Positions 24,925 to 41,056 of a stretch of DNA of 42,636 nucleotides are shown piece by piece. Location: positions 1 through 42,636 of the forward strand of contig JAUYSA010000157.1 of NCBI GenBank assembly GCA_030696545.1. The letters run 5' to 3'. A program made the position numbers and the translations under genes. This stretch comes from Hyphomonadaceae bacterium. GTDB taxonomy: Bacteria; Pseudomonadota; Alphaproteobacteria; Caulobacterales; Hyphomonadaceae. Each line of letters opens with the position of its first letter. Position 1 is the stretch's first letter. A model generated the notes under the pieces. It saw only the letters and a list, made by a program, of their open reading frames with translations, did no database searches and was not told where the DNA came from.

Positions 24925-24927
24925 CGC

Positions 24928-24984
24928 TGGTGCGGGAGGTGGGGGTCGAACCCACAAATCCGTTAGGACGACGGATTTTGAGTC
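24928..24984 (-). pseudogene. 3-prime fragment of a disrupted tRNA-Leu(CAA) (anticodon loop to CCA)
   Basis: Minus strand reads GACTCAAAATCCGTCGTCCTAACGGATTTGTGGGTTCGACCCCCACCTCCCGCACCA. That is the anticodon loop, 3-prime anticodon stem, long variable arm, T-arm (GTGGG TTCGACC CCCAC), 3-prime acceptor strand CTCCCGC, discriminator A and CCA. Its 5-prime partner is at 41045-41086. Confidence 0.9.
24973..24984. repeat. attL core (direct repeat GGATTTTGAGTC)
   Basis: The exact 12-mer is repeated at 41045-41056. It corresponds to the anticodon loop (CTCAAAA) plus adjacent stem bases of tRNA-Leu(CAA). Confidence 0.85.
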
Positions 24985-25123
24985 ACAAAATCTGAGTCCT
25001 GCCGACTCCTCCCGAGCCCAAATCGTGGCTTACGACCCTTAGTTTTCAAGACAAAATCTCCTCTGTGCTCCCTCTGGCTCCCGACTGCGGTCGGGCCTGG
25101 AGCTTGGCCTTTGGAGAACTTCA

Positions 25124-26269
25124 GTGACAACGAAAATTACGCAGGCCCTGGTGGACAGGGTGATGGACGAGTGCGCGCCTGGCAAACAGGTCTACGACGA
25201 CCAAGTCTCGGGCCTCCGCATCGTGGTGGGCAAGAAGAGCGCCAGCTTCAAGCTGGTAGGCTTCCTGAACGACGGGACGGGTCGGTACTTCTCCTCGATG
25301 ATCGGGCGCACGGACGAGGTGAGCCTGAAGACCGCAAGGACGCGGGCGATCGACCTAAAGCAGAAAGCCCGGCAAGGCGTCGATCCCCGCAAGCCAAAGT
25401 CGACGGTTCCGACGCTGGACGAGGCGCTTCAACGATATCTCGACAGCCGCGGTGCATCGCTGCAGCCTCGTACTCGCGACTGGTACGCCGAGAAGGTGCA
25501 AGGGCCTCTGTCGAGCCTGCGCAAGCTGCCGGTGGACCGCATCGACCGCGAGCAGGTCCGTGCGCTGCACGAGCGCATAACGAAAAAGAACGGCCCTGCC
25601 TGCGCCAATGGCAGCATGCGCACTCTCAAACTTCTACTCAACGACGTGGCGAGGACGGTGGATTTGCCGGCCAATCCCGTCTCCCGCGCCGTGCGGCTGA
25701 ACGAGGAGCGCCCGCGAGACTGGTCGGTGGCCCCCGACGACATGCCCGAGCTGTGGCGCCGCCTCGACGCCATGAGCGACCGCGTGAGGCGAGCCTGCTG
25801 GCTCCTGATGCTGACGACGGGGCTGAGATGTCATGACGCGCGCAGCATGAAGTGGGCGCATATCGACGCGGACGGTATTGTTACCTTGCCGTCGCCGAAG
25901 GGCGGCCCGTCGAAGGCGTTCAAGCTCCCGCTGCCGCGCCTGTTCCTGCAGGCGCTGGAAGAGGTGCGCGAACTGACGAAGCCTTTCGAGAGCGAGTACG
26001 TCTTCGCCTCGGCCGTGAGCAAGTCAGGGTACATCGAGCAAATGAGGAGGACGGACGAGTTCGGATGGGCGCCGCACGCGATGAGGCACACCTACCGGTG
26101 CTACGCTCTGGAAGCGGGCATCGACTTCCAGACCATCACCCTCCTGATGAACCACGCTAACCCCCACGTCTCGTTCAACTACATCACGCGTCACAACATG
26201 ATCGGGCACATGGCGGAGATGCAGGAGAAGGTCTGCGCGAAGCTTGTGAGCTACCGCCGGTCTGCATGA
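25124..26269 (+). CDS. int: tyrosine site-specific integrase (P4-type N-terminal arm-binding domain)
   Basis: GTG 25124 behind GGAGA. N-terminal DUF4102-like part VYDDQVSGLRIVVGKKSASFKLVGF. Catalytic region LLMLTTGLRCHDARSMKW...HAMRHTYRCYALEAGIDFQTITLLMNHANPHVSFNYI shows the R, HxxR and Y elements. Confidence 0.93.
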   Translation: MTTKITQALVDRVMDECAPGKQVYDDQVSGLRIVVGKKSASFKLVGFLNDGTGRYFSSMIGRTDEVSLKTARTRAIDLKQKARQGVDPRKPKSTVPTLDEALQRYLDSRGASLQPRTRDWYAEKVQGPLSSLRKLPVDRIDREQVRALHERITKKNGPACANGSMRTLKLLLNDVARTVDLPANPVSRAVRLNEERPRDWSVAPDDMPELWRRLDAMSDRVRRACWLLMLTTGLRCHDARSMKWAHIDADGIVTLPSPKGGPSKAFKLPLPRLFLQALEEVRELTKPFESEYVFASAVSKSGYIEQMRRTDEFGWAPHAMRHTYRCYALEAGIDFQTITLLMNHANPHVSFNYITRHNMIGHMAEMQEKVCAKLVSYRRSA

Positions 26270-27120
26270 CGGTGGCGCTTGCCATCGTGAAGCGACCCTT
26301 TGATGCGGTTCATGGCCTTCGAAAGGGGGACGGTGTTGGAGTAGTGGAATGCCGCTTGCTGTCCCTTGTCCGAGGAGAGGTCATGCGCTGCGATAGGCAC
26401 GATGTGGTCGATCTCCCACATCTCACCCCAATTTTCCCACGTCATGTTCGGATCGAATAGGCTCTCAAGATAGGTGCGGTACTGCTCGGCAGAGCAGCCG
26501 AGAAGTTCGATTGTTGTTCTCGATTTGCCGGGCGAGCCGACAGCGCACTTGAGGGCCTGTTTGATACGCCCGGACACGACCTTTCGAACCTTGAAAATCG
26601 GATCGTTGGCATATCGATTGTTCTGGTAGGTGTTCGCTTTTCTCTTCGCTCCTTCGGGATCAGCCGCGCGCCAACGCTGCATTCGTTCGCGGCCCCGCTC
26701 CGGATGGTCAAGTTGATATTGGCGGGCCGCTTCGAGTACACGGCAGCGGTTCGCCTCATACCAGCGTCTATCCTTCTCGAAAATTCTCTCTGCGTTTGCT
26801 TCAGCCCAGCGACGGTTGATCTTGCTGACTTGCTCTGCGTTCGCCCGCTTCCAGCGACGGCCTGCTTCTTGACTCTTAGTTTGCCAGTCTTCTGTGTGGA
26901 GCGCCGGGGCAAGCCAGTTATAGACATGCTTGTCGCTCCACTCGAAGCCGAGATGATCCCGAGCTGCTTTTGCAAGTTGCTGCCTTAAGCCGAAGTGGGG
27001 CGAACGTCGCGATTGCGATGTCGGAACGAACGCGATCACGCGAGCGCCCAGCTCGCGCGCTGTCTTCACTCCCTCCAAATGCGGTAGCAGCGCTTCAATG
27101 GTCGTCACGGTCTGGCCCAT
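26251..27120 (-). CDS. HNH endonuclease-domain protein with repeated RRW-x-AN helical motifs
   Basis: The C-terminal WEIDHIVPIAAHDLSSDKGQQAAFHYSNTVPLSKAMNRIKG fits the HNH pattern (DH...N...N). The central part has repeats RRWKRANAEQV / RRWAEANAERI / RRWYEANRCRV. It converges on int with a 19-nt overlap. Confidence 0.75.
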   Translation of the reverse strand: MGQTVTTIEALLPHLEGVKTARELGARVIAFVPTSQSRRSPHFGLRQQLAKAARDHLGFEWSDKHVYNWLAPALHTEDWQTKSQEAGRRWKRANAEQVSKINRRWAEANAERIFEKDRRWYEANRCRVLEAARQYQLDHPERGRERMQRWRAADPEGAKRKANTYQNNRYANDPIFKVRKVVSGRIKQALKCAVGSPGKSRTTIELLGCSAEQYRTYLESLFDPNMTWENWGEMWEIDHIVPIAAHDLSSDKGQQAAFHYSNTVPLSKAMNRIKGSLHDGKRHRHADRR

Positions 27121-27248
27121 GTCCTTTCATGCCGTGCGACCAGCTGACGAGACGCCATCGTTTGCCCCGTGCGGTCCCTCCGGGTCCAAATGCTGGTTTG
27201 CGCGATCCTCGCCAGCACGCATCCTGATGCCTGCAATCGCATCAGGAG

Positions 27249-27500
27249 TTGGACGTGCAGGAAGTTCTGGATCGGCTCGATCGCATCGAGCAAATGCTGG
27301 AGTCGCAGTCGCGACCAGTGGAGTACCTCGACACCGATGGCGCCTCGCGCTTCACCGGCATCTCGGCAAAGCAGCTGGAGAACTGGCGCAGCGACCGCAC
27401 CGGCGGCCCGGCCTATACGAAGCGGGGTCGCTCGGTGTTCTACGCGATCTCGGACCTCAGAAGCTTCATGCAGGCCAAGCGTGTGGAGCCCCTGCAATGA
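27249..27500 (+). CDS. AlpA/excisionase-like HTH protein
   Basis: 83 aa. EYLDTDGASRFTGISAKQLENWRSDRTGGPAYTKRGRSVFYAISDLRSFMQ fits the MerR-type HTH_17 / excisionase pattern. The start (TTG 27249 or a downstream ATG) is uncertain. Confidence 0.7.
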   Translation: MDVQEVLDRLDRIEQMLESQSRPVEYLDTDGASRFTGISAKQLENWRSDRTGGPAYTKRGRSVFYAISDLRSFMQAKRVEPLQ

Positions 27501-27850
27501 AAACGTCAGCGACAAGGCCTCCCAATCATCCCAACGACTGGAGCCTTCCCGATAAAAATGCCTTCGTGGCGCTGGTCACCCAGACCTACGCCCGAATGGC
27601 CCGTGGCGAGAACAATGTGGTCGCAGCGCACGAGGCCGCGAGGGAGATCGGGCTGGAAAGCGGCGAGCGGCACTGGCTCACGGACGAGGTGCTGGGCGGC
27701 TGCTTCGGTGTCTTCTACGCGCCGTCATCGGACCTCTACGCCAACGCCCGGGACTTCGTGAAATGGGCGGACGCGCGCGACCTGGCCCACATCGGCCCGG
27801 ATGGCGTGGAGTGGGCCCGCGTGTTGGCGGACGCCGAGACGGATCACTGA
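27497..27850 (+). CDS. hypothetical protein
   Basis: ATG 27497 overlaps the previous stop (ATGA). It covers 117 aa of track ORF 27098..27850 (MKTSATRPPNHPNDWSLPDKNAFVALVTQTYARM...). No recognisable family. Confidence 0.5.
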   Translation: MKTSATRPPNHPNDWSLPDKNAFVALVTQTYARMARGENNVVAAHEAAREIGLESGERHWLTDEVLGGCFGVFYAPSSDLYANARDFVKWADARDLAHIGPDGVEWARVLADAETDH

Positions 27851-28060
27851 GCCATCGTTTCCCGGCCCGCGAGCATTGCTGGCATCCCGGGGCGAAACAC
27901 CTTGGCATGCTGTGAGAGTCGGCCGCCCGACCTCAACGGGCGGGCGACCTAATCTCAGGTTGGCACATGGTTTGCTGGCGTTCGCAGCGTCAGCGTGTGG
28001 TTCACAGACAGGAGATTAGGAAGAGCATCATCCCATCACCGCCTATGGAGGGCGGGAACC

Positions 28061-28291
28061 ATGACCGAACATAACGAGACGGGCGTCGCAGGTACGCCCT
28101 CGAACGAAGCCGACATCATCCTCGCGCCGACCGTGGCCGCGCTGATGGGCATCACTTACAACACCTTCCGGTCCTACAGGGCCAACGCTCGCGGCCAGAC
28201 GCCGCCTCCCCTCGGCAAGAGGGCGAGCAACTACCTCTGGTCAATGAAACAGGTCGAGGCATGGCTCGCCGCACGCAGCGAGCGCGGCTGA
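28061..28291 (+). CDS. second excisionase/AlpA-like HTH protein
   Basis: ATG 28061 behind GGAGGG. ILAPTVAALMGITYNTFRSYRANARGQTPPPLGKRASNYLWSMKQVEAWL fits an HTH_17-like pattern. It lies immediately upstream of the primase gene. Confidence 0.6.
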   Translation: MTEHNETGVAGTPSNEADIILAPTVAALMGITYNTFRSYRANARGQTPPPLGKRASNYLWSMKQVEAWLAARSERG

Positions 28292-28294
28292 GCC

Positions 28295-30673
28295 ATGGAC
28301 ATCGACACCAAGCAACTGCGCCGCCTGGCGGACGCGGGCCTGCAGCTCATCCCTCTTCACAGCTGGGACGCGAAGAGCACCGACGCCAAGGGTCGCAAGC
28401 GCGATGACGGCAAACGGCCGCTCGACGCCAGCTGGACCACCCGGCCCTACGACACCCTGAAGGTCGTCGAGCGTGCGGAGCACACCAACTCAAACGTCGG
28501 CGTCCGGCTAACCGCCGAGCAAGTCGTCCTCGACTGGGACCCGCGCGCCGACACCGGCGAATACTCCGACCCCGCGATAAATGCTTTCGTTGAGTTCGTG
28601 CTGTGGCATGGCCTCAACCCCGACGACTTCCCGCAAGTCGAGACGGGCGGCGGCGGGCTGCACATCTACATGGCGAAGCCAGCCGACGTGGCAGTACTCG
28701 GCAGCCTGGAGAACTACCCTGGCGTGGAGTTCAAGACGAAAGGCCAACAGGTCGTGGCGCCGGGCTCGGTCCATCCTAATGGCAAAATCTACGTACTGGT
28801 CGAGGACTTCAACGACATTGGATCGCCCGATCAGGCGCCGAAACATCTGCTCGACGCCATCGTCCGGACGACCACGAGCGCAGCTGTCACCGAAGGCGGC
28901 CAGTACGACCAAGAGCTCATCGCGGCCATGCTCGAAGGCCTCGACCCGGGCGACTTCGGCGAGCACGACAAGTGGCTCAAGCTGATGATGGCGTGCCACC
29001 ATGCATCCGCCGGCGCCGCACGCGAGGAGTTCATCGAATGGTCTACCAAGGACCCGGTGTATCAGGACGACGCCTGGATCATCGGTCGGCGCTGGGACTC
29101 GCTGCACGCGAAGCGGGACGGTGCCACCGTCACCTATAAGTCACTCAACAAGTTCCTGTGCGACGTGGGAAGGGGCGATCTGATCCCCTCTACCGCCGCA
29201 GAGGACTTCGGGGACGACGATCCGGCCATGGCCGATGAGCCGTCGGGCGGAGAGCTGCCTCAGGGACCGCTCACCGGCATGAACGAGAAGTTCTGGGCCG
29301 TGCTCAACGCTGGTCGCTTCCGGATCATGTGGCTGGCGGATGACCCCGAGGAGCCGGGACGCCGCTTCTGGAAGTCGCTGGCGAAGCCGGACTTCGAGGC
29401 GTACCTGTCCAACCGCAAGATCGAGAAGCCTGCGAAGAACAAGAAGGGCGAGACGGTCACCGAGACCACGCCCCTCGCAAAGGCGTGGCTCGACTGGGGC
29501 CATCGGCGCCAGGCGGAGGACGTGGTGTTCGTCCCCGACCGCGAGGTGCCGGGCAGCCTCAACCTCTGGACCGGATGGGGCGTGGATCGCGGTGAGAGCG
29601 GCGAGTGCCGGCTCATGCTGGAGATGATCCGCGACGTGCTCTGCTCGGGCGTGCAGGAGCACTACGACTACCTGATGCGGTGGATGGCCTGGAAGGTACA
29701 GAACCCCGGCGAGCCGAACGAGGTCGCGGTGGTCTTCAAGGGCGCGAAGGGCGTGGGCAAGACGACGCTCGGCGAGTCGCTGGCGAAGATCTTCGGATCG
29801 CACGGCCTGGTGCTGAGCTCGGTGGAACAGATCGCGGGTCGGTTCTCGGGCCATCTCGCGACCGTCTGCTTCCTCTTCGGCGACGAGATATTCTGGGGCG
29901 GCAACAAGACCCACGAGGGCACGCTCAAGAAGATCATCACCGACAGGGAGGTCATGCGCGAGGCCAAGGGTGTGGACATGGTGAGGGCGCGCAACCGCAT
30001 CAGCCTCATGATGGCGACGAACGAGAAGTGGGCCGTCCCGGCATCGCTGGAGGGCGAGCGCCGCTTCTTCGTGCTCAATGTCTCCAGTGAAAGGAAGGTA
30101 CCCGACAGCGCCCCGGCGGACCATCCGAACCGGCTCTACTGGAACGCCGTGCACGACGAGATCAGAGACGGCGGCAGGGCGGCCTTCCTCCGCCACCTGA
30201 TGGCGATGGACCTCGGTCGCTTCCATCCGCGCTCTGCCGTACCGGAGACGGAGGGCATGTCGGAGCAGAAGGTGCACAGCCTCGATCCGCTCCAACGCTG
30301 GCTGCTGTCTGCCACCGAGCTGGGCGTCCTTCCCGGATACCCGAGCACGAAGGACCAGAAGCAGCTTCGCCGTACCGACTGGGAGCTGAAGCAGGACTGG
30401 TCGCAGGTGGAAGCACACGACCCGCCTCGGCTCGACCCCACCTCCGTCATGGAGAACGTCGAGGCCCACTGGTCGAAGCTCCGCTCGCCGGTCCCAGGTG
30501 TGCTGACCGTCAAGAACATGCTGGAGGAGTTCGGCTGGCAGAGCAGGAAGTCGAACGGGGTGGTGACGTGGCGACCGCCGACCCTGGAGCAGGCACGACA
30601 GGAGTGGCGGCGGCGGCTGCCCGGCCTCACGGTCTTCGAGGCGCCGCCCGAGGACGATGAGTGGGACAGCTGA
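28295..30673 (+). CDS. bifunctional primase-polymerase (PrimPol) fused to a D5/P4-type SF3 helicase
   Basis: 792 aa. N-terminal PrimPol motifs LIPLHSWD, VGVRLTAEQVVLDWD, GGGGLHIYMAKP, GVEFKTKGQQVVAPGSVHPNG. Central PriCT-like helical region. C-terminal Walker A VVFKGAKGVGKTTLGESL and Walker B-like CFLFGDE. Confidence 0.88.
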   Translation: MDIDTKQLRRLADAGLQLIPLHSWDAKSTDAKGRKRDDGKRPLDASWTTRPYDTLKVVERAEHTNSNVGVRLTAEQVVLDWDPRADTGEYSDPAINAFVEFVLWHGLNPDDFPQVETGGGGLHIYMAKPADVAVLGSLENYPGVEFKTKGQQVVAPGSVHPNGKIYVLVEDFNDIGSPDQAPKHLLDAIVRTTTSAAVTEGGQYDQELIAAMLEGLDPGDFGEHDKWLKLMMACHHASAGAAREEFIEWSTKDPVYQDDAWIIGRRWDSLHAKRDGATVTYKSLNKFLCDVGRGDLIPSTAAEDFGDDDPAMADEPSGGELPQGPLTGMNEKFWAVLNAGRFRIMWLADDPEEPGRRFWKSLAKPDFEAYLSNRKIEKPAKNKKGETVTETTPLAKAWLDWGHRRQAEDVVFVPDREVPGSLNLWTGWGVDRGESGECRLMLEMIRDVLCSGVQEHYDYLMRWMAWKVQNPGEPNEVAVVFKGAKGVGKTTLGESLAKIFGSHGLVLSSVEQIAGRFSGHLATVCFLFGDEIFWGGNKTHEGTLKKIITDREVMREAKGVDMVRARNRISLMMATNEKWAVPASLEGERRFFVLNVSSERKVPDSAPADHPNRLYWNAVHDEIRDGGRAAFLRHLMAMDLGRFHPRSAVPETEGMSEQKVHSLDPLQRWLLSATELGVLPGYPSTKDQKQLRRTDWELKQDWSQVEAHDPPRLDPTSVMENVEAHWSKLRSPVPGVLTVKNMLEEFGWQSRKSNGVVTWRPPTLEQARQEWRRRLPGLTVFEAPPEDDEWDS

Positions 30674-30677
30674 TCGG

Positions 30678-30965
30678 CTCACAGTGCTCGGTGGCGGACC
30701 GTTCCGGATTGAGCACTGTGCCCAGTCACTGAAAAAGCTCAGCGTTTCCTAGGCAAAGTTCTCACAGTGCTCATAGTGCTCAATAGTATTTGTTTTTATG
30801 CATGAAGAAGAGACTGCAGCAGCTGGTACGACTGGGTAGGCGCTGTGTTGTTCGTCCGTATACGGAACTCGAAACCGGCGAGCCCTGGAGCCCTGGAGCA
30901 CTTTCGCTTCAGAACCAAGGCGTTGCGCAGTGCTAGCTGGAACCCAGTCCGATCACTGAAGCACT
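30678..30965. repeat. candidate replication origin: iterons plus AT-rich tract
   Basis: CACAGTGCTC at 30680-30689 and 30763-30772, variant CATAGTGCTC at 30772-30781, and an inverted copy GAGCACTGTG at 30711-30720. Half-sites GAGCACT at 30896-30902, CAGTGCT at 30928-30934 and AGCACT at 30960-30965. The lowest-GC stretch I noticed by eye is AATAGTATTTGTTTTTATGCATGAAGAAGAG (30782-30812). Tandem CCCTGGAG x2 at 30883-30898. Confidence 0.55.
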
Positions 30966-31197
30966 TTCCCGCCGAGGGGACGCAGCCTGGCGAACCTTGC
31001 AGGGAGCCTTGCAACGCTGGGTTACGGCGCCGAGAACACGCGCCAATCTGAGTCGAGAGTGTGAGACGGCCTCGCGCATATGCGCGCGTAGATCGCCCCT
31101 CATGACGTCTGATCATATGTCCCTCCTACCGGCCCGAAATGCCCTTCCGATCCAAGGCGATGGAGGGGGCTAGTCTCGGAGCCCGACGAGGGGCCCG

Positions 31198-31770
31198 ATG
31201 GAGATCAATGCCGTGACGACTGGAAGACTGCCCGCGGTGATCGAGCGGGAGCGCGACGACGTAGTGGACCGCTTCCTGGAGATCGTCCGCTCGACTGGCA
31301 ATTCCAGCGGCGCCGCCAGAGCCGTGGGGCTGAGCCGCCAGGCGTTCTACGAGCGCGCCGTTCGTGATCCCGACTTTCGGCAAGAATGGGAGCACGCCCA
31401 GCGCCAGTCTCGCAGCCACATCGCCCAGGAGATCATGGATAAGGCGGTGGTGCTCACCGGCCGCGTGATCGAGGAACCGCTCCTGGACCTCCAGGGCAAC
31501 CAGGTCCTGGATGAGAACCTGGAGGCCGTAACGATCCGCCGAGTCGTGGATTACGACGCGCGCATCCTGTCGAAGCTTCTCGATAAGCTGCTCGCATCCG
31601 AGGACGGCGCACCGATCACTGCTGTTCAGGTCAACCTGCCGCCTCCTCCCCCGCCACCTCCGGCCCCTCCGCGTGTCGCGCGCCTGGTCTTCGCGGATGC
31701 TCGGCCTGACGACTCGGCGCCGAGAGTCACCGAAGCGATCCAGGATGCGACCTGGGAGCCTGTGGGATGA
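31198..31770 (+). CDS. terminase-small-subunit-like HTH protein
   Basis: 190 aa. STGNSSGAARAVGLSRQAFYERAVRDPDFRQEWEHAQRQSRSHIAQEIMD...DYDARILSKLLDKLL matches the HTH + helical pattern of proteobacterial prophage TerS proteins. It has a poly-Pro run (PPPPPPPPAPP) near the C-terminus. Confidence 0.55.
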   Translation: MEINAVTTGRLPAVIERERDDVVDRFLEIVRSTGNSSGAARAVGLSRQAFYERAVRDPDFRQEWEHAQRQSRSHIAQEIMDKAVVLTGRVIEEPLLDLQGNQVLDENLEAVTIRRVVDYDARILSKLLDKLLASEDGAPITAVQVNLPPPPPPPPAPPRVARLVFADARPDDSAPRVTEAIQDATWEPVG

Positions 31771-33482: not shown

Positions 33483-33486
33483 AGCC

Positions 33487-33744: not shown

Positions 33745-33748
33745 CCCC

Positions 33749-34327: not shown

Positions 34328-34681
34328 CTATCTGCGCTTCGCAGGCTTCGCTGAGCCACGCTCGCGCGCCCGCCTGACTTCGGCGTCCGTCAGCACGCCT
34401 GGCTTGTCCTTGCGCAGCCTTGACCTGTACCAGCTGATTGACCGCAGGGTCGTCGCGGCGCCCGGGTGAGTGCGGAAAACCGCCTCCAGCGCCTCATCGT
34501 TCGTGCCGCCACTCAGGATCACGCGCTGCGCGACCTCCGCTACGCCCAGCCAGTGGCCCTCGAACAGGAACCGGCTCACGGCCTCGCGCACCACGTCGCT
34601 GACCGAGCTGCCAGCCACCGAGGCGGCGTCCTCCAGCCCTTCTACCAACTCCTCCGGGATCGTCACATTCATCCGCCGCAT
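34328..34681 (-). CDS. ribbon-helix-helix (CopG-like) regulator with C-terminal extension
   Basis: ORF 34328..34798. Start placed at ATG 34681 (or 34672). The start MRRMNVTIPEELVEGLEDAASVAGSSVSDVVREAVSRFL is a typical RHH N-terminus. It is divergent from the 34789 gene. Confidence 0.7.
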   Translation of the reverse strand: MRRMNVTIPEELVEGLEDAASVAGSSVSDVVREAVSRFLFEGHWLGVAEVAQRVILSGGTNDEALEAVFRTHPGAATTLRSISWYRSRLRKDKPGVLTDAEVRRARERGSAKPAKRR

Positions 34682-34788
34682 CGGGCGGTCCGGCCCCTGC
34701 ATTGCACACCTCATGGCATGGCTGGTGTCTACCGGCCCATCTTTGGACACTTCCGTCCACGGTGGTCGCACATAGGAGTAAATGTGCC
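34682..34788. promoter_or_regulatory. divergent promoter/operator region
   Basis: 107-bp gap between the RHH gene and the plus-strand module. The inverted repeat GCACAT-N8-ATGTGC (34768-34787) spans the AGGAG RBS of the 34789 gene. Confidence 0.35.
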
Positions 34789-35382
34789 ATGAACGCAACT
34801 AAGGGTGGCTACCAACAGCCGAACGACTACCCGGCCCACACTCAAGAGTGGGCGCTGCGCCAGCTGGCGAACGTCGGCCTGCCCGGCGGCGCCAGCTCAG
34901 CCGAGCTGTCCGCGTTCGCTGCGGCGGCAGATCAGCTCCAGGCCGCACTCCGGACCTTCGATCAGACCTTCGTCGACCATGGCCCCGCAATGATCGCGGC
35001 GGTGCTGGTAGACCACGTCGGCGCCGGCTACGTGCTGGACTGCGGCTACTGCTTCGACATCCTGCAGATCGCCAGGGCGGAGTGCGGCTCCGACCGCGGA
35101 GAGATACCGGACGGCCCGCACGCGCGGACGCCTGGGTCCGTGGAAGACCTGACGTTCCTGCTGGACAGCGGCCAGTTCGACAACCTCGATCTGTGCCACG
35201 CCGCATTCGCGGCTGGCCTGGAGGGCCCGACCGAGATCGCCAAGGCAACGGGCGTGAAGGTGACCGTGGTCTCGGGCTGCCTCCACTGGATAAGGAAGGC
35301 GAACGGCGACCTCGCCGAGGCCCGCCGGCTCCGGAACGAGCGCGCCCGAGTGCGTCCTGGCACACCGGCTAGCGGTGAATGA
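34789..35382 (+). CDS. hypothetical protein with C-terminal HTH-like module
   Basis: ATG 34789, 10 nt after AGGAG. 197 aa. The C-terminal EIAKATGVKVTVVSGCLHWIRKANGDLAEARRLRNERA is shared with the next gene. Confidence 0.55.
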   Translation: MNATKGGYQQPNDYPAHTQEWALRQLANVGLPGGASSAELSAFAAAADQLQAALRTFDQTFVDHGPAMIAAVLVDHVGAGYVLDCGYCFDILQIARAECGSDRGEIPDGPHARTPGSVEDLTFLLDSGQFDNLDLCHAAFAAGLEGPTEIAKATGVKVTVVSGCLHWIRKANGDLAEARRLRNERARVRPGTPASGE

Positions 35383-35383
35383 C

Positions 35384-35695
35384 ATGAAGAAGACAGATCA
35401 GCTCTCCGTCGTACACGCCGCCTACATCACTGGCGCCGACACGGGCACTAAGGTCGAGAACGCGACGGGCGTGTCCTACAACTCCGCCAACGACTGCCTG
35501 TGCTGGATCAGGAAGGCCGACGGCGACCTCGAACGCGCGCGGCGTCTTCGCAGCCAACACAGTGTCGCTGTCTACATGCGCAGGTACAATTCGGACCCCG
35601 AGTTTCGTGCTCGTGCGAGGGCGCGCAACACCGCCGCGGAAAGCAGGCTCCGTCAAGAAAAGCGGGCCGCCCGCAACAACGGGGCGACGATGTAA
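35384..35695 (+). CDS. hypothetical protein with the same HTH-like module
   Basis: ATG 35384 lies 1 nt after the previous stop (GTG 35375 is an alternative start). Contains KVENATGVSYNSANDCLCWIRKADGDLERARRLRSQHS, then a YMRRYNSDPEFRARARARN tail. Confidence 0.5.
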   Translation: MKKTDQLSVVHAAYITGADTGTKVENATGVSYNSANDCLCWIRKADGDLERARRLRSQHSVAVYMRRYNSDPEFRARARARNTAAESRLRQEKRAARNNGATM

Positions 35696-35743
35696 CGCCG
35701 TAAGGGCCGCGCGCCCGTAAGCGCCGAATCATTCGCTGACAGG

Positions 35744-35773
35744 AAAAGGCCGGGAGCGATCCCGGCCTTTTTC
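35744..35773 (+). terminator. Rho-independent terminator
   Basis: GGCCGGGA (35748-35755), loop GCGA, TCCCGGCC (35760-35767), then TTTTTC. An A-run precedes it, so it could act in both directions. Confidence 0.75.
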
Positions 35774-35879
35774 ATTCGTAGCATTTTGTCGTCCCCGCCC
35801 CCGGCTCGCGGGCGCCAGCATGCGCGACACGCTCTCCCTCATCGACGCCACCCCGGCGCCGACCAACGGAGACAGTCAC

Positions 35880-36251
35880 ATGGACATGACGAAGATGACT
35901 GCGGGCGAGCTGCTCGCGGTCCACAACGAGCGGTGCCCCAAATCGGACCGCCTCACATCTTGGAAGGCATCGAAGGCGGCGCTGATCGCGAAGATCGAGA
36001 AGCTCGGTGAGCGCTCGAAGCAGACGAGTAAGCCGAAGGCCACCGAGAAGGCGAAACACGCGCCGACGGCCACCATAAGCGACTCGGTGAGGCGTCTGCT
36101 CGCCGATCCCAAGTTGAGTTACGCCGACATTGTTGAACTCGTACTCGCCGCCCATCCCGACGCCGCCACCACGACGCGCTCCATCGCCTCCGTCGCGAGT
36201 GTTCTTCGCAAGAAGGGCACAGCGGTCCCGATGCGGAAGGGAGCGAACTGA
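35880..36251 (+). CDS. hypothetical protein sharing the C-terminal domain of the RHH regulator
   Basis: ORF 35820..36251, with ATG 35880 behind GGAGA. The C-terminal ADIVELVLAAHPDAATTTRSIASVASVLRKKG resembles EALEAVFRTHPGAATTLRSISWYRSRLRKDKPG of the product of 34328..34681. Confidence 0.5.
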   Translation: MDMTKMTAGELLAVHNERCPKSDRLTSWKASKAALIAKIEKLGERSKQTSKPKATEKAKHAPTATISDSVRRLLADPKLSYADIVELVLAAHPDAATTTRSIASVASVLRKKGTAVPMRKGAN

Positions 36252-36252
36252 G

Positions 36253-36549
36253 ATGACCGAATTTTTGGGATGGGGCGTTGCGGTGAAGATCGCGGAGAAA
36301 TTCCACGAACGCATCCGCGCCGAGCTTGGCGAGCACTTGACGGAGATCGACAATCTGAATGCCAAGCAGAAGGACTGCTGTGGAACGCATCTCTACTGTG
36401 ACCCCAACGACTACATGGGGGATGCATTTTTCGAGACGGTCGGAAGAGAGATCAACGTGCAAAGCGGCCACGACCTCGCTGTCTTCGACGTGGCGTGGGG
36501 AATTGCGCGGCGCCGCGGGTTTTCGAGGACGTGGGGGATTGGCGCATGA
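36253..36549 (+). CDS. hypothetical protein
   Basis: ATG 36253 lies 1 nt after the previous stop. 98 aa, MTEFLGWGVAVKIAEKFHERIRAELGEHLTEIDNLNAKQKDCCGTHLYCDPNDYMGDAFFE... No recognisable family. Confidence 0.45.
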   Translation: MTEFLGWGVAVKIAEKFHERIRAELGEHLTEIDNLNAKQKDCCGTHLYCDPNDYMGDAFFETVGREINVQSGHDLAVFDVAWGIARRRGFSRTWGIGA

Positions 36550-36731
36550 TCGGCTTCCTTGAGCTGCCGTGCCTCAGCGGCCCCGCCCTCATCCGTCTCG
36601 ATAGGGTGGTCCTCGTGAGGCCCGACCCCACGGCGGCCGCCACGCGTACTCTCATCGTGTTGGACGGCGCCCAAGAGGTTCTCATCACCAAGCCCGCCGC
36701 GGAGGTGGTGAGCGCGATGAAGGCGGTCTAA
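36546..36731 (+). CDS. hypothetical small protein
   Basis: ATGA overlap with the previous stop. 61 aa, MIGFLELPCLSGPALIRLDRVVLVRPDPTAAATRTLIVLDGAQEVLITKPAAEVVSAMKAV. Confidence 0.4.
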   Translation: MIGFLELPCLSGPALIRLDRVVLVRPDPTAAATRTLIVLDGAQEVLITKPAAEVVSAMKAV

Positions 36732-36756
36732 TCCGGCCAAGGCGAAGAACTGTGTG

Positions 36757-36785
36757 AGGGCGCGGAGCGATCCGCGCCCTTTCTC
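36757..36785. terminator. hairpin terminator between convergent operons
   Basis: AGGGCGCGGA (36757-36766), loop GCGA, TCCGCGCCCT (36771-36780), then TTCTCTATTC on the plus strand. It abuts the stop of the HEPN-like gene. Confidence 0.65.
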
Positions 36786-37273
36786 TATTCTGCTGCGAGC
36801 GGCATCGGTCCGACCATCTCATTGAGCTTCCCATGGAACGCCTTGAGAGCTTCCTGCCCGACCGTCATCGAGCGCATGAGCATCAGCACAGCAGTTCCAG
36901 CGACAAGAAGGTCCACGTCTCGATCCGTCGCCGTCTTGTCGCCGTGGAAGAAGTTGTTCCGCACGTCTTTCAGGTGATCGACGAGCTTGGCGGCGTCCGT
37001 CGAGGCGGCGGGGAAGTCTCCCCAAACCGGCGGACCGTCTTCCGGACCCATGACCAGCTTCCGGGGCGGATGGTCGATCAGATGCCGCGCCTGCGGGAGC
37101 AAGCTGGCCTTGGCGAAGAAGTCGGCGGGCAGCATGAGGACGAACGTCGTCCAGTCGGCGGCCGCGGGTTTACCGGTCTTCCACTTCGTTCCCTTACAGT
37201 GGAGGCCGCCCCGCTTCATCGCGTACTCGAACGCTCCGAACAGCCTCGCGAACTCCATTGCCTGCGGGTACAT
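36785..37273 (-). CDS. HEPN-like protein (R-x4-H motif)
   Basis: 162 aa. RNNFFH at residues 105-110 (nt 36944-36961, verified as CGGAACAACTTCTTCCAC) sits in the context LKDVRNNFFHGDK. The protein is helical, with an N-terminal EFARLFGAFEYAMKRGG helix. It is the last gene of the four-gene operon. Confidence 0.5.
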   Translation of the reverse strand: MYPQAMEFARLFGAFEYAMKRGGLHCKGTKWKTGKPAAADWTTFVLMLPADFFAKASLLPQARHLIDHPPRKLVMGPEDGPPVWGDFPAASTDAAKLVDHLKDVRNNFFHGDKTATDRDVDLLVAGTAVLMLMRSMTVGQEALKAFHGKLNEMVGPMPLAAE

Positions 37274-37285
37274 GGCGGCCTCTCG

Positions 37286-37594
37286 CTAGATCTTGCTCTG
37301 GATGCTGAGCTGCGCCTGCGCGAGCGCGGCCCGTGCTTCCGCGAGCGCGGCGACGGCGGCATGGGCAGACTGTCCGCTCAGGTACGGGCCGGGCGCAGGC
37401 AGATCAGAGGTCGGCGCGGCCGCGACGTGCGGGAAGCTGTCACCAGTGGCGACGTTGGCGATTCGTCCGCCGTTGACGCCGAACCAGCTGGCGATGTCGT
37501 GCTGACGGTCGCCGCGCGCGAGCATGCCCTTCACTATGGCGGCGTCGGCGGCGGTGAGACGGATGCCGCTCGAAGGCGCGCGTTTCCTGGTCAT
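37286..37594 (-). CDS. small HTH protein
   Basis: ORF 37286..37660, with ATG 37594 behind AAAGGA. MTRKRAPSSGIRLTAADAAIVKGMLARGDRQHDIASWFGVNGGRIANVATG fits a sigma-70 region 4 / GcrA-like HTH pattern. Confidence 0.5.
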   Translation of the reverse strand: MTRKRAPSSGIRLTAADAAIVKGMLARGDRQHDIASWFGVNGGRIANVATGDSFPHVAAAPTSDLPAPGPYLSGQSAHAAVAALAEARAALAQAQLSIQSKI

Positions 37595-37608
37595 GGTGAG
37601 GTGTCCTT

Positions 37609-37794
37609 TCACTTCGTGTCGTTGGCGGGTGTGGGAGGCGGGCTGTTTTCGGGAATGCACCCATCAAACAGCTTCGACCGGACGTACTCAGAACGGTCGC
37701 AGTGCCGCTCTTGGGCCGCCCGGTCGAGCGCGTCGCACTGCTCCTCGGTGACCCGGACGGTGACGTACTTGATGCGCTTGGAACCCTTGGCCAT
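37609..37794 (-). CDS. small ribbon-helix-helix protein (MobC/CopG-like)
   Basis: ORF 37609..37938, with ATG 37794 behind GAGGGTGAG. 61 aa, MAKGSKRIKYVTVRVTEEQCDALDRAAQERHCDRSEYVRSKLF. Confidence 0.55.
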   Translation of the reverse strand: MAKGSKRIKYVTVRVTEEQCDALDRAAQERHCDRSEYVRSKLFDGCIPENSPPPTPANDTK

Positions 37795-37805
37795 GACGCT
37801 CACCC

Positions 37806-39506
37806 TCACGCTGCGCGCTTGCGTAGGACGAGGCCCGGGACCTCGGGAAACGGCTCCTTGCGCGGGCCGACCTGCTGCCACTTCAGCGTCGCCACGGGCC
37901 GGTCTTGAAGGTAAGCGTTCCATGCCTTGATGATCCATGCGGCGCGCTCAGCGTCCGGAATGCTGACCTTCTTGTCGATCTTGGCGCGCACGAGCTGGTC
38001 GCGCAGGGTCAGGATCGGGTGGCGCGCCGGGAGCTCGGCGCCGTCCGTCAGGCGATTGAGGAAGAAGTCAGCCTTCCTCGGGTGCACGCGGCGGAAGAAG
38101 TAGTGCAGCGCAATGACGAGCGTCGGCGCGGTGATGTCACGGATCTTCTGACCGTTGCGCACGCTGTCACGGAGCTCGGGGTGCGCCTTCAGCGTGGACA
38201 TCAACTCGGCGTTGGTGGGAGCAGCTCCGCGAGACTGGAGCAGCCCGTTCTCGAAGAGCCAGACCTGACGGAGGCACGCGGCAAGAAGGCTGGTATTCGT
38301 CTCGCCCAGATCCCGCAGAATATCGCCGAAGGCGCGCTTCGACCCGAGGTCGAACGTCTCGAACACCGAGGGATCGAGGCCCCTGACGATCATCGCAGGA
38401 AAGGGCTTGTTCGCAAGAACGCCCGCCTGGAGCCGGTGCTGGCCGTCCAGCAGCCGTCCGTCCTTGGCGACCTTGATAGTCTGGCCGTTGAGCTTCCACG
38501 CCCCGGACTTGATGTCCCTGGCGTACTTCTTCACCACCATACCGGAGATGGGCCGGTTATGATCGTTCCGCTCCAGCAGCATCTCGGCCATGGCCGGATC
38601 TACGTCGACGATCTCCACCTCGATGCCACGGGCGTTGAGGCGTGGACGCCGGCCGCCTGCCGCCGCCTCAGGCACCGAAGCAAGGCCGGTGCGCAGCGCG
38701 TCTTCATCAATCCCACTCACACGAGGCGGGTTGTCGGTCCCGGGCACGAAGCGGAGCTGCTTCATCGGCTCACCGGCGACGAAGGCCTCCCACGCCTTGA
38801 TGAACAGGCCGATCACCAGACCTTGGGACTTCATGCCCCTGGTATCCTGGAGGGCCTGGAGCTGGCGCCGGAGGAGGTAAGCGGGCCCCTCGTCCACTTC
38901 CTCATCTACAAGCTCGTGGAAAAACTCGTTGGCCTTCTCGGGGTCGCGCTTCCAGAACAGGTAGTGCATGGCAGCGACCACGCCGAGCGACATGAACGAA
39001 GACGCGTCGGCGGCCAGCGCCATGCTCAGCCGGACATCCGGGTTGTTCGCCAGGATCTGGAGACGCTGCTGGGCCGTCACCTTCCGCCCAGGAGCGGCGT
39101 AGTTGTCATTCGCATACCGCCAGAGGACTGCCAGCGCCGCAGCAAGGGCGCGCCCGTTCTCCTCGTCCTTGATCGACAGGATGTCCCCAACGGTGCGGCT
39201 GCGCACTGCATCGATCGTGTCGAATGCAGAGTCTGCAACGCCTCGGACCAGCAACGCGGGGAAGGGAACCTTGGCTTGGACGCCTGCCGCCAGACGCAAA
39301 ACGCCGTCGAGAACTTGCCCGCTCTGGCCAAGGATGACAGGCTCGCCGTTCATGCGCCAGCGGCCCATTCTCATGTCTTCGGCGAAGGCCTCGACCTGCT
39401 GGGGGTTCAGGCGCCGCTCCAGCCGCTTCTTTTGGAGAAGCAAGGCGGCCTCTGCTGGCTTGATGAGGACGATCTCGTGGGTGATCTTGGCGGGCGGGCG
39501 CTTCAT
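37806..39506 (-). CDS. tandem-duplicated ParB/Srx-like (DGQHR-type) protein
   Basis: 566 aa made of two homologous halves of about 280 aa. Repeat 2 has ISGMVVKKYARDIKSGAWKLNGQTIKVAKDGRLLDGQHRLQAGV (DGQHR at nt 38433-38447, verified as GACGGCCAGCACCGG). Repeat 1 has the degenerate NPQQVEAFAEDMRMGRWRMNGEPVILGQSGQVLDGVLRLAAGV. Both are followed by similar helical domains (IKAWEAF / IKAWNAY). Confidence 0.65.
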   Translation of the reverse strand: MKRPPAKITHEIVLIKPAEAALLLQKKRLERRLNPQQVEAFAEDMRMGRWRMNGEPVILGQSGQVLDGVLRLAAGVQAKVPFPALLVRGVADSAFDTIDAVRSRTVGDILSIKDEENGRALAAALAVLWRYANDNYAAPGRKVTAQQRLQILANNPDVRLSMALAADASSFMSLGVVAAMHYLFWKRDPEKANEFFHELVDEEVDEGPAYLLRRQLQALQDTRGMKSQGLVIGLFIKAWEAFVAGEPMKQLRFVPGTDNPPRVSGIDEDALRTGLASVPEAAAGGRRPRLNARGIEVEIVDVDPAMAEMLLERNDHNRPISGMVVKKYARDIKSGAWKLNGQTIKVAKDGRLLDGQHRLQAGVLANKPFPAMIVRGLDPSVFETFDLGSKRAFGDILRDLGETNTSLLAACLRQVWLFENGLLQSRGAAPTNAELMSTLKAHPELRDSVRNGQKIRDITAPTLVIALHYFFRRVHPRKADFFLNRLTDGAELPARHPILTLRDQLVRAKIDKKVSIPDAERAAWIIKAWNAYLQDRPVATLKWQQVGPRKEPFPEVPGLVLRKRAA

Positions 39507-39840
39507 CGGGTTTGACCTGCGGCGGGCAACAGGGCTTGCCCAAGAGCAATCTCTGCCCGTCGCCTAACATGAGCAAGAAGATTCGTGTTGCACGCCTCGT
39601 CACCGTCAACTGGGTTGACCATGGGAGAAGGTAAAATCCGTCCTATGCCCCTGATTATTCAGCCTAAAACACGATCAAGAAGGGTGCGATGAGGATTCAG
39701 CAGTGCCGACTTTGTTCTTCCCATACGGAAGCATGATCCGTGTCGTCGCGGGGGTCATCAGCACGGCGTCGGCGGTCCTGCGATTCTCATGCAAAGCAAA
39801 CGCTGGTCCCCTTCTAGCATAAAACGCAGCAACATGGGCT

Positions 39841-40461
39841 ATGGAAACAGCCCACCAACGCCTGGCGGCCGCCCTGCACCGGGAAGGCATCGCGAACGAA
39901 GAGTCCGCCTCGCCGGAGGCGGCTGGACGCCTTTGCGCAGAGCTGGGTATCTCACCGAAGAGCCTGCGAAACCGGCGCTGGGAGCTCAAAAAGGCCTCTG
40001 AAGCGGGCTGCGAGGCAAACCAAGGACCGGTTAGCGCGCAGGGGCGAAGATACAGGTCGGACCCAGCCTACGCTGCCGCGATGCGTGAAAAGGCGCGGAG
40101 AGCCCGCGTGAGGAACTACGCCTATCACGTATTCAAGAACACGCGCGGCAACGCACGGAAACGCGGCCTGCGCTTCGAGCTCACGCGAGAACAAGTCGCT
40201 GAACTGCTGGTGCCGATGCAATGCTCGATGACCGGCCTCCCGCTTCTGCCAGATTGGGACGGTCCCGGCCGCAACCCGTGGTGGCCCAGCCTCGATCAGA
40301 TCGACCCGTGCGCTGGCTACACAAGGCAGAATGTCCGAGTGGTCTGCTGGGCCTATAACGTGATGAAGGGCGAACTGACCGACCAAGAGGTCCGTATCTA
40401 CGCCTCCGCCCTGTTGCGCGGCCCCTCGGGCCGGACCCGGAGGCCGGGGACAAGATCATAG
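39841..40461 (+). CDS. HNH-like (DRID-GY-NV motif) protein, paralog 1
   Basis: 206 aa. ARKRGLRFELTREQVAELLVPMQCSMTGLPL...PSLDQIDPCAGYTRQNVRVVCWAYNVMKG matches a pattern I recognise from phage-associated HNH-type proteins (S-DRID-x-GY-x-NV). Confidence 0.55.
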   Translation: METAHQRLAAALHREGIANEESASPEAAGRLCAELGISPKSLRNRRWELKKASEAGCEANQGPVSAQGRRYRSDPAYAAAMREKARRARVRNYAYHVFKNTRGNARKRGLRFELTREQVAELLVPMQCSMTGLPLLPDWDGPGRNPWWPSLDQIDPCAGYTRQNVRVVCWAYNVMKGELTDQEVRIYASALLRGPSGRTRRPGTRS

Positions 40462-40505
40462 CCGCACGTCTCTACAGCAACGGGGTCTCCGCGTCGGCGC
40501 ACCTG

Positions 40506-40856
40506 ATGCGCACGTGGCGGGCGAGTGCTGGCGGCAGAGGCCTAGAGTTCTCGCTGACCTACGACTGGCTCAGTCCACGCCTGACGAGGGGAGTATGCGA
40601 GGTCACGGGTCTACCGCTGGCGATGGAGTACGGAGGGCGTGCGCACCGGAACCCTCTCGTTCCGAGCGCAGACCGGATCGACGGCTCGAAGGGATACTCC
40701 CCTGAGAACGTGCGCCTCGTCTGCGGCTGGTTCAACTACGCCCGACAGGACTGGCCTGATGAGGTCGTCAGGAAGGTGGCGCTGGGACTATTGCGCCTCA
40801 GTTCTCGTGCCGCTTTCCGGAGTCGAACCGGAACGACCGAAGTCGCCGCATTTTGA
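40506..40856 (+). CDS. HNH-like (DRID-GY-NV motif) protein, paralog 2
   Basis: 116 aa. GGRGLEFSLTYDWLSPRLTRGVCEVTGLPL...PSADRIDGSKGYSPENVRLVCGWFNYARQ. The last ~49 nt run into the antisense tRNA-Leu gene, so the C-terminus is doubtful. Confidence 0.45.
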   Translation: MRTWRASAGGRGLEFSLTYDWLSPRLTRGVCEVTGLPLAMEYGGRAHRNPLVPSADRIDGSKGYSPENVRLVCGWFNYARQDWPDEVVRKVALGLLRLSSRAAFRSRTGTTEVAAF

Positions 40857-40889
40857 GTGCGGTGCGTCTACCAATTCCGCCAAAGCGGC
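40808..40889 (-). tRNA. tRNA-Leu(CAA), intact, carried inside the element, no encoded CCA
   Basis: Minus strand reads GCCGCTTTGGCGGAATTGGTAGACGCACCGCACTCAAAATGCGGCGACTTCGGTCGTTCCGGTTCGACTCCGGAAAGCGGCA (82 nt). Acceptor GCCGCTT/AAGCGGC, anticodon stem CCGCA/TGCGG with loop CTCAAAA, long variable arm, T-arm TCCGG TTCGACT CCGGA. The downstream bases are CGAG, not CCA. Confidence 0.9.
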
Positions 40890-41044
40890 ACGAGCGGGCG
40901 TTCTAACCCGATCGATCGGATAGCGGAAGTCCGGCTTGGCCTATGTGTGGCTTTTCGGGCTTCGAGATCTGGCCGGACTCGTCCAGAGAGCCGCAACGCC
41001 TTGATCCGGAGTCGATTTTCGTGATGGGCCGCGAGAGGCACTCA

Positions 41045-41056
41045 GGATTTTGAGTC
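41045..41056. repeat. attR core (direct repeat GGATTTTGAGTC)
   Basis: Identical to 24973-24984. Confidence 0.85.

Follow-up and report, generated by a model that had tools for sequence, protein, structure and literature searches.

A tRNA-Leu-splitting alphaproteobacterial island with its own tRNA and a phage-satellite-like gene set

Ends of the island and the empty site

The window analysed here, by which we mean the whole 42,636-nucleotide (nt) contig JAUYSA010000157.1 of a Hyphomonadaceae bacterium (assembly GCA_030696545.1), contains an island of 16,072 bp (24985–41056) inserted in the anticodon loop of a minus-strand tRNA-Leu(CAA) gene. An earlier note, made from the DNA letters, had described exact 12-bp direct repeats bounding the island, had placed them in the two halves of one tRNA-Leu(CAA), and had predicted that joining the outer flanks restores the tRNA. 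In agreement with this proposal, the 12-mer GGATTTTGAGTC is present exactly twice in the window, at 24973–24984 and 41045–41056 (about 0.01 chance occurrences are expected), and fusion of the flanks (24700–24984 joined to 41057–41300) yields an 87-nt tRNA-Leu(caa) with an encoded CCA in ARAGORN. Neither attL alone nor attR alone contains a tRNA by the same program. The common core spans the 7-nt anticodon loop and extends into the stem by 2 and 3 bases. The features of the island ends are listed below (window coordinates, strand, description).

24928–24984, minus: 3′ half of the host tRNA-Leu, with CCA end, including the attL core; 95% identical to the intact tRNA of the empty-site locus L162
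24973–24984, no strand: attL copy of the 12-bp common core GGATTTTGAGTC
24985–25123, no strand: P′ arm of attP, with a candidate arm-type site GTCGGGCCTGGAGCTTGGCCT at 25090–25110
40807–40889, minus: island tRNA-Leu(CAA), complete, 83 nt, A73, no encoded CCA (ARAGORN; Rfam tRNA, 56.8 bits)
40890–41044, no strand: P arm of attP, separating the island tRNA from the core, with a candidate arm-type site at about 40935–40962
41045–41086, minus: 5′ half of the host tRNA, including the attR core

The thymidylate synthase encoded in the window belongs to a 90% cluster with proteins from Hyphomonadaceae metagenome-assembled genomes, and the host is Hyphomonadaceae-like. An empty site, which the earlier note had suggested seeking in a related genome, was found at locus L162 (in a 4.58-Mb contig), reached via the 90%-identity protein cluster of the window's methionine gamma-lyase. 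L162 has the same gene order as the window at about 77% nucleotide identity, with an amine oxidase gene, a small open reading frame (ORF), one intact tRNA-Leu(CAA) and an adjacent DedA/VTT gene. Positions 1–1090 of L162 align with window 42137–41045, and positions 1079–1137 with window 24984–24926; the two alignments overlap by exactly the 12-bp core, placing the breakpoint within the same 12 bp. The anticodon stem reads CGGA/TCCG across the separated halves in the window and TGGA/TCCA in L162, a compensatory difference. Because the stem bases covary across them, the two tRNA halves in the window must formerly have been one gene. The imperfect inverted repeat that the earlier note described in the attP made by joining the island ends is present as quoted (12 of 13 bases, with one indel), and its sequence is not kept in the closest same-site relative.

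The island supplies a complete tRNA-Leu

Elements that target tRNA genes classically bring with them the 3′ part of the gene, thereby rebuilding a working tRNA. Integration in the window is instead non-restoring, a point overlooked in the earlier note: the junctions are without a tRNA, and a whole tRNA of the same anticodon is supplied by the island. The right-end tRNA of the proposed gene order is indeed present, but rather than being part of the split host gene it is a complete second tRNA-Leu(CAA), which is 67% identical to the host tRNA and lies 155 bp inside attR, on the strand of the host gene, where it directly follows the retained 5′ half. It is the sole match in an Rfam scan of the island; the conserved intergenic block described below corresponds to no known RNA family in that scan.

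Comparison with related loci (designated L plus a number) reveals the same arrangement at other sites. In L001 a tRNA-Leu(UAA) is split at the loop sequence TTTTAAG, and the island contributes a tRNA-Leu(UAA) of its own; the same combination of a UAA-type split and an own tRNA-Leu(UAA) is seen in L080 (Litorivita) and L053 (a Sulfitobacter metagenome-assembled genome); and a third island (L163/L165) occupies the window's DedA/tRNA-Leu(CAA) site and has its own tRNA-Leu(CAA). In all five split-tRNA islands compared (CAA in the window and L163; UAA in L001, L053 and L080), the anticodon of the island tRNA is that of the target, and this covariation of anticodon with target (CAA, UAA) argues for selection on the replacement tRNA. 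The island-only contig L168 has a UAA tRNA, matching its TTTTAAG att core. The core is 7–10 bp long in the relatives, and in six of six GTDB loci with integrases at 60–65% identity int is directly preceded by a tRNA-Leu 3′ half that ends in TTTTAAG. We regard a mobile island with tRNA-splitting, tRNA-replacing integration as very well supported.

The replacing mode is not the only one in this group. At L049 (Erythrobacter sp. NAP1; 5085–5138 and 18527–18613), where the integrase belongs to the same clade (62% identity), the tRNA is restored by a 3′ half that the island brings; since L049 uses this classical arrangement, restoring and replacing modes coexist in one integrase lineage.

As in tRNA-dependent lysogeny, the island tRNA would replace the decoding function lost with the host gene, and the host tRNA promoter, which is retained, may drive its transcription. 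Two points weigh against this. A promoter and terminator scan around the island tRNA predicted none, and tRNA-Leu(CAA) may be dispensable, because UUG can also be read by tRNA-Leu(UAA), so that compensation in the window's island is possibly non-essential. Only tRNA-Leu(UAA), by comparison, reads UUA. The island tRNA is thus likely to be needed for integrant survival in UAA-type islands, with its need in CAA-type islands uncertain.

A different view of the island tRNA is that it is a leftover of serial integrations, i.e. a captured attB copy that acts as a landing pad only and has no selected decoding role. The two tandem 5′ halves and the displaced, island-type 3′ half of L053, the fragment of another island's tRNA retained in the L163 spacer, and the restoring arrangement of L049 within the same integrase clade are all in keeping with such a history. 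Yet the island tRNAs are full length with a canonical fold (judged for the window's by its Rfam score); A73 is kept and the target anticodon is matched in the five split-tRNA islands, as the core is by the L168 tRNA; and, UUA being unreadable by other tRNAs, a UAA-type split without a working copy should be lethal. We therefore consider a mere leftover very unlikely, and favour a selected replacement tRNA.

Several relatives show further peculiarities in this region. In L053 the two 5′ half copies follow the island tRNA in tandem (20303–20700), with the spacer sequence repeated after the island tRNA and after the first 5′ half, and the displaced 3′ half (5041–5095) adjoins int; the layout fits serial integration of one island into the tRNA of an earlier island. 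In L163 the spacer that separates the island tRNA from the att core contains (11905–11935) a fragment of about 20 nt, CCAAAGCGGCACGAGCGGG, matching window 40876–40896, where its counterpart is the 5′ end and upstream flank of the island tRNA; it was probably left behind by module exchange or by an earlier island. The island tRNA-Leu(UAA) of L001 (17702–17777) has just 76 nt and is without the long variable arm that bacterial tRNA-Leu typically has. In L168 (15810–16125, minus strand) the replacement tRNA-Leu(UAA) is interrupted by a 222-nt group I-like intron (Rfam Intron_gpI, 27 bits, E = 9e-5, under the gathering score) between U34 and A35, which is the classical position of the tRNA-Leu(UAA) intron; spliced in silico, or analysed by ARAGORN with introns allowed, it gives an 87-nt tRNA-Leu(taa). 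As a speculation, this intron, placed exactly at the integrase core, could shield the island tRNA from use as an att site.

Gene content, conserved order and module exchange

The remaining features of the island, annotated mainly with Pfam and PHROGs, are as follows; unless another scope is given, statements on matching families below refer to scans of the island ORFs against these two collections.

25124–26269, plus: P4-type tyrosine integrase with N-terminal arm-binding domain (Pfam Phage_integrase 3.8e-12, Arm-DNA-bind_3 8.6e-7; phrog_1 3.6e-40)
26251–27120, minus: variable slot 1, a 289-aa endonuclease VII/HNH-like protein (phrog_1035 3.4e-7; no Pfam match)
27249–27500, plus: AlpA-like helix-turn-helix (HTH) protein, candidate excisionase/activator (Pfam HTH_17 3.8e-5; phrog_66 excisionase/regulator)
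27497–27850, plus: conserved 117-aa protein, 64% identical in L001 (no family match)
28061–28291, plus: second small HTH protein (phrog_597 4.2e-7, phrog_66 4.6e-5), conserved in L001
28295–30673, plus: PrimPol-PriCT_2-DUF5906/VapE (D5-like helicase) replicase (Pfam; phrog_1156 9.4e-91)
30674–31197, no strand: 525-bp non-coding region
30674–30990, no strand: candidate replication origin, with iterons followed by an AT-rich stretch at about 30785–30815
31045–31107, no strand: second conserved non-coding block with palindrome GCGCATATGCGC, upstream of the operon of the small terminase (TerS)-like gene
31198–31770, plus: TerS-like protein (phrog_4044 small terminase 4.4e-9); start possibly GTG at 31213
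31767–34042, plus: conserved module of six small genes (107, 97, 100, 186, 85 [coiled coil] and 97 aa)
34328–34798, minus: ribbon-helix-helix (RHH) regulator (Pfam RHH_1 6.6e-6; Arc-like repressor PHROGs)
34702–36549, plus: partly conserved small-gene module (PHROGs, comparison with L001)
36785–37273, minus: conserved 162-aa protein (phrog_19013; 41–42% identical in L001)
37286–39506, minus: variable cargo operon (566-aa protein; small RHH protein, NikA-like, weak; 124-aa protein)
39841–40461 and 40506–40856, plus: two endonuclease VII/HNH-like genes (phrog_3322 4.4e-29 and 5.7e-26)

These assignments uphold the gene order of the earlier note with two corrections, namely that its HNH genes are endonuclease VII/HNH-like and that the right-end tRNA is complete. 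The order recurs in the relatives as int, a variable slot, AlpA, PrimPol, origin, TerS-like gene, small genes, RHH gene and variable cargo. L001 shares all genes from the AlpA-like gene through that for the 162-aa protein, in the same order and at 37–81% identity, and its integrase is 63% identical to that of the window. Complete islands measure 13.4–16.3 kb despite differing cargo.

Superimposed on this conserved order are signs that island modules are exchangeable. L168 is a mosaic, with an int/attP region resembling that of L001 (89%), a TerS block resembling that of the window (82%), and a diverged PrimPol. It is also an island-only contig of 16,263 bp (ENA ERZ25039499, contig_26049) which starts with TAAG and ends with TTTT and hence breaks within the TTTTAAG att core, suggesting that the sample held an excised circle or was polymorphic for the presence of the island.

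A paired motif, GGGCCT-N4-6-GGSCY, recurs on both sides of the core, between about −80 and −110 and between about +120 and +150, in five of five islands compared. We infer that these pairs are putative arm-type sites of the integrase, which would fit its Arm-DNA-bind_3 domain.

The PrimPol is 81% identical in L001, and the first ~310 nt 3′ of its gene are about 90% identical between the window and L001, compared with 74% for the core overall. This segment contains four copies of the iteron CTCACAGTGCTC (30678–89, 30709–20 [inverted], 30761–72 and 30770–81), and the iteron block is a candidate replication origin; L168 has a diverged PrimPol and different iterons at the same position. The block at 31045–31107 is kept in five of five aligned islands, including L168, and travels with the TerS module. 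It may represent the control region of the TerS operon (operator, promoter) or a pac site.

Of the regulators, the AlpA-like protein is 54–55% identical in L001. The RHH gene is divergent from the module that follows it, and an RHH gene occupies the same position in L001, L163 and L168; its true start is probably internal, near 34678.

The TerS-like protein and the case for a satellite

No match to capsid, portal, large terminase (TerL), tail or lysis families was obtained for any island ORF scanned, in line with the earlier note, which had recognised no capsid, portal, large terminase or tail gene. An exhaustive HMMER search with the TerS-like protein returned 614 relatives, the closest 42 of which all match phrog_4044. 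The AlphaFold2 (AF2) model (predicted local distance difference test, pLDDT, 62) comprises an HTH, a long helix and a β hairpin, and Foldseek against BFVD matched it to phage small terminases (E 8e-6 to 1e-3), including that of Roseobacter phage RDJL Phi 2 and those of Pseudomonas phages Ab18 and PaMx28 and PhiJL001 (gp58).

The same gene set points to a group of phages. Primases of Roseobacter phages RDJL Phi 1 and RDJL6, and those of 55–65-kb Xanthomonas phages, show about 41% identity to the PrimPol; the right-end endonucleases are at most 50% identical to the endonuclease of Pseudomonas phage PaMx28; and relatives of the endonucleases occur in 55–65-kb phage contigs that also carry a related PrimPol. 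As three island gene families lead there, similar 55–65-kb siphoviruses (RDJL-type roseophages, PaMx28-like) are indicated. Complete islands are about a quarter of the size of RDJL Phi 1 (62,668 bp).

These observations suggest a mechanism in which the AlpA-like and HTH proteins would drive excision and activation, with repression by the RHH protein, and the excised circle would be replicated by the PrimPol-helicase from the adjacent iteron origin. The TerS-like protein would then divert the terminase of a helper phage, probably an RDJL/PaMx28-like 55–65-kb siphovirus, to island DNA, small helical proteins might interfere with or adapt helper assembly, and the variable slots would carry defence-type cargo.

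A number of results weigh against a satellite. With regard to the TerS-like protein, the TM-scores of the fold matches are low (0.3–0.4) and the query model has the modest pLDDT given above; fold matches in the PDB are not significant, the top one being Sf6 TerS, and a PDB sequence search with the TerS-like profile gave no match; tblastn of the protein against GenBank phage records found no homologue; and the two HMMER relatives inspected for context (E 1e-28 and 2e-37) each lie in an island rather than a phage. The AlpA-like protein scores 24.3 bits with HTH_17, under the Pfam cut-off of 27 bits. Among the small proteins, the 186-aa helical-hairpin protein (32922–33482; AF2 model all-helical, pLDDT 80) retrieved generic helical hairpins and no PDB match in a fold search, and no Sid/Psu/Delta, Cpm, Ppi or capsid genes were seen among the island ORFs. 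No helper phage was identified, and the window holds no prophage. IMG/VR scans by TerS-like alignment, PrimPol, attP junction and origin pattern returned no island relative (the PrimPol scan gave 55–65-kb phages only, at ≤46% identity), and patterns for the attP junction (exact and degenerate) and the origin found nothing in JGI metagenomes, and so no excised form. Whole-island megablast against GenBank phages and PLSDB plasmids gave no match. A scaffold or Sid-like role for the 186-aa protein is not claimed, as its fold matches are uninformative and such a role would be pure speculation.

An alternative is a site-specific island that replicates itself and is not packaged by a helper; it could be an integrated plasmid-like replicon or a defence/cargo island. 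In that case the TerS-like protein would be an HTH regulator or an origin-binding accessory protein, and spread would occur via mobilisation, generalised transduction, gene transfer agents or transformation. In favour of this are the searches in which helper or virion evidence was not found, the restriction of the TerS-like PHROG match to residues 23–85 (the HTH and part of the helix), the weak NikA-like RHH protein in the cargo (26.6 bits, under cut-off), and the occurrence of Int, AlpA and PrimPol alone in elements without proven satellite status; SatelliteFinder ranks the trio only as a low-confidence 'Type C PICI' (phage-inducible chromosomal island; PMC10085698). On the other hand, no relaxase, oriT-associated or type IV secretion gene was matched, the closest TerS-like relatives uniformly match TerS PHROGs and the whole-model fold matches reach E 8e-6, and both the narrow size range and the fixed place of the TerS-like gene beside the origin fit packaging. 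We regard a non-packaged island as possible, although doubtful. A conjugative or mobilisable element in particular is not favoured, given the lack of a relaxase match and the sub-threshold NikA-like score.

That the island is a decayed prophage from which the structural genes have been deleted is scarcely credible. While PrimPol, the endonucleases and the TerS-like gene do have phage relatives, the compact architecture with intact ends is present in at least six genomes or metagenomes, with a core at 37–81% identity and intact ORFs; sizes cluster at 13–16 kb; structural-gene fragments were not seen; and the empty site has a clean breakpoint. A prophage remnant is rejected on the grounds that this architecture recurs intact.

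The satellite interpretation of the earlier note thus stands as regards the ends, the conserved gene order, the absence of structural-gene matches and the TerS-like gene; the lifestyle itself is an interpretation, as no helper, virion or excised attP was found. We consider a satellite lifestyle plausible and the best-supported reading of the gene set, with the balance tipped modestly in its favour, and lean by a narrow measure towards a PICI/VEIME-like satellite (VEIME, virion-encapsidated integrative mobile element) that works by the proposed mechanism as a whole.

Comparison with known systems

The Gram-negative PICIs, e.g. EcCICFT073 and PmCI172, reportedly described by Fillol-Salom et al. 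in 2018, share with the island an end integrase, an AlpA-type regulator, a primase/replicase with origin, a packaging module with a small-terminase homologue (a putative one in the island), cargo, a size of about 10–16 kb (16.07 kb for the island) and the lack of structural or lysis genes. Unlike them, the island has no detectable homology to their packaging or capsid-morphogenesis genes (the TerS-like protein has none to PICI TerS, Rpp, Ppi or Cpm, its matches being phrog_4044 and the folds retrieved with a low-confidence model), resides in another host class, and splits the tRNA gene rather than restoring it. Capsid-forming PICIs carry their own capsid, portal, protease and head-tail connector genes, none of which was matched in the island. 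Capsid-remodelling genes, by which P4 and classical PICIs are defined, were likewise not detected.

Like satellite P4, the island has an integrase with Arm-DNA-bind_3 and catalytic domains, an AlpA-like regulator and a PrimPol-helicase. P4 integrates in leuX, a tRNA-Leu(CAA) gene of E. coli, as the island targets tRNA-Leu(CAA). Unlike the island, P4 restores the tRNA and uses cos sites, without a TerS; no homologue of Sid, Psu, Delta or Epsilon (Ash) was found among the island ORFs. The tycheposons of the marine bacterium Prochlorococcus are said (Hackl et al.) to have tRNA-targeting tyrosine recombinases, replicative modules and variable cargo, to be proposed to ride in particles or vesicles, and to restore the tRNA with a partial copy; the island is similar in its tRNA-targeting recombinase, replicative module and variable cargo.

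A similar gene set is, by description, that of the VEIMEs, modules from marine viromes that are associated with Alphaproteobacteria and comprise a tyrosine integrase, primase/helicase, AlpA, TerS and HNH; the nearest relatives of their TerS genes are in co-occurring phages (Eppley et al., 2022; PMC9618062). The VEIMEs are defined by recovery from virus particles, whereas the island was not found in the IMG/VR and JGI searches described above, and the word tRNA does not occur in the text of the VEIME paper (PMC9618062). The earlier note fairly remarked that satellites of this type have been little characterised outside Gammaproteobacteria and Firmicutes; these elements associated with Alphaproteobacteria were, however, reported in 2022 (PMC9618062).

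With respect to integration, the nearest counterpart is tRNA-dependent lysogeny, which was shown experimentally in actinobacteriophages (mycobacteriophages) in 2024, for example in Fionnbharth with tRNA-Lys(UUU) and Gaia with tRNA-Leu(CAA), and whose authors asked how common it is beyond actinophages (Guerrero-Bustamante & Hatfull; PMC10865867). Both involve an arm-binding tyrosine integrase and a common core of about 8–12 bp within the tRNA gene; in both, neither junction rebuilds a functional tRNA, the element carries a tRNA of the same anticodon, and close relatives have the classical restoring arrangement (here L049). In contrast with the actinophages, the present element is not a temperate phage but an island without virion or lysis genes, its host is alphaproteobacterial, and it is described from sequence. 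The crossover lies in the anticodon loop, whereas attB of the actinophages is described as overlapping the tRNA gene in its 3′ half or at its 3′ end (PMC10865867); the replacement tRNA lies 110–230 bp from the core, on the same strand and directly downstream of the host 5′ half; and the replacement tRNA of one relative has a group I intron. In how it works, the island thus resembles Gram-negative PICIs, VEIMEs and tRNA-dependent lysogeny; it is not P4-like, not a capsid-forming PICI and not a phage. The logic of tRNA replacement is already known; here it is seen in an alphaproteobacterial non-phage island.

A search of the literature yielded no account of such islands from Rhodobacterales or Hyphomonadaceae, and the island belongs to a previously undescribed alphaproteobacterial family. 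If the satellite interpretation is correct, the family would be a conserved one in a class whose satellites are so far known from glimpses in viromes only, and the proposal of RDJL-like roseophages as helpers would be testable in culturable carriers of the Roseobacter group; Jannaschia rubra CECT 5088 and Roseobacter sinensis WL0113 are culturable strains with relatives of the island, and Erythrobacter sp. NAP1 and Litorivita sp. NS0012-18 have integrases of the clade that targets tRNA-Leu. If the replacement of the tRNA is as proposed, the logic of tRNA-dependent lysogeny, shown only in actinophages, would extend to Proteobacteria and to non-phage elements, and island finders which assume that the tRNA is restored at one junction would miss or mis-call such islands.

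A more far-reaching reading joins five proposals under a first recognised alphaproteobacterial phage-satellite family with Hyphomonadaceae, Rhodobacterales and Erythrobacter-type hosts. The family would parasitise RDJL/PaMx28-like 55–65-kb siphoviruses, or possibly gene transfer agents; would be packaged as concatemers of about four units (4 × 15.7 kb = ~62.7 kb); would secure its place by destroying the host tRNA-Leu gene and substituting its own; would express the substitute from the captured host tRNA promoter and offer it as the landing pad of the next island; and, in some lineages, would shield the replacement tRNA from the integrase by a group I intron at the crossover site. We think it unlikely that all five hold jointly.

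Wider family, small genes and cargo

Beyond the close relatives, a wider set comprises 17 Rhodobacterales/Paracoccaceae loci (L043–L068 and L075) together with L073, L170 and L171, from Roseobacter-group and other alphaproteobacterial genomes and one TARA Oceans scaffold. In these loci an int (~30% identity) is accompanied by a PrimPol gene and, some 3 kb downstream, by one for a TerS-like protein, and relatives of the 100-aa and 143-aa proteins are often encoded as well; in four loci ARAGORN found a tRNA nearby, which was Ser, Thr or Asn rather than Leu. The island family is probably large.

The six-gene module at 31767–34042 is collinear and 37–76% identical in L001 and also occurs in L163–L169, with no family matches for its proteins. 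The neighbouring 107-aa and 97-aa proteins (31767–32380) are paralogues, each about 35% identical to the L001 orthologue of the other, and the duplication is kept in L001, L163, L166 and L168. A GTDB genome scan with the 186-aa protein gave pattern matches and no true relative. In the following plus-strand module, the 143-aa protein (35820–36251) has a C-terminal domain in common with the RHH protein.

Slot 1, which lies in a region of lower G+C (0.577 for 26001–27000), is occupied by a HEPN-like gene in L001 and a DUF5677-like gene in L168, and is empty in L164/L165. Likewise, the cargo at 37286–39506 gives way to different genes in L001 (an M78 peptidase with HTH and a SMODS/CBASS-like gene), L163 (an N6/N4 methyltransferase), L168 (a DNA methylase and a GHKL-type ATPase-domain gene, HATPase_c_3) and L170 (a SmaI/Vsr restriction-modification set). 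Scans of the window's cargo and small genes against PADLOC and NCBIfam gave nothing informative. The 566-aa cargo protein (37806–39506, minus strand) has no Pfam, PADLOC, NCBIfam or PDB match and consists of tandem phrog_5931 domains (7.9e-111 in two stretches), a phage family of unknown function; by eye, each half has a ParB/DGQHR-like motif, e.g. LLDGQHRLQAG.

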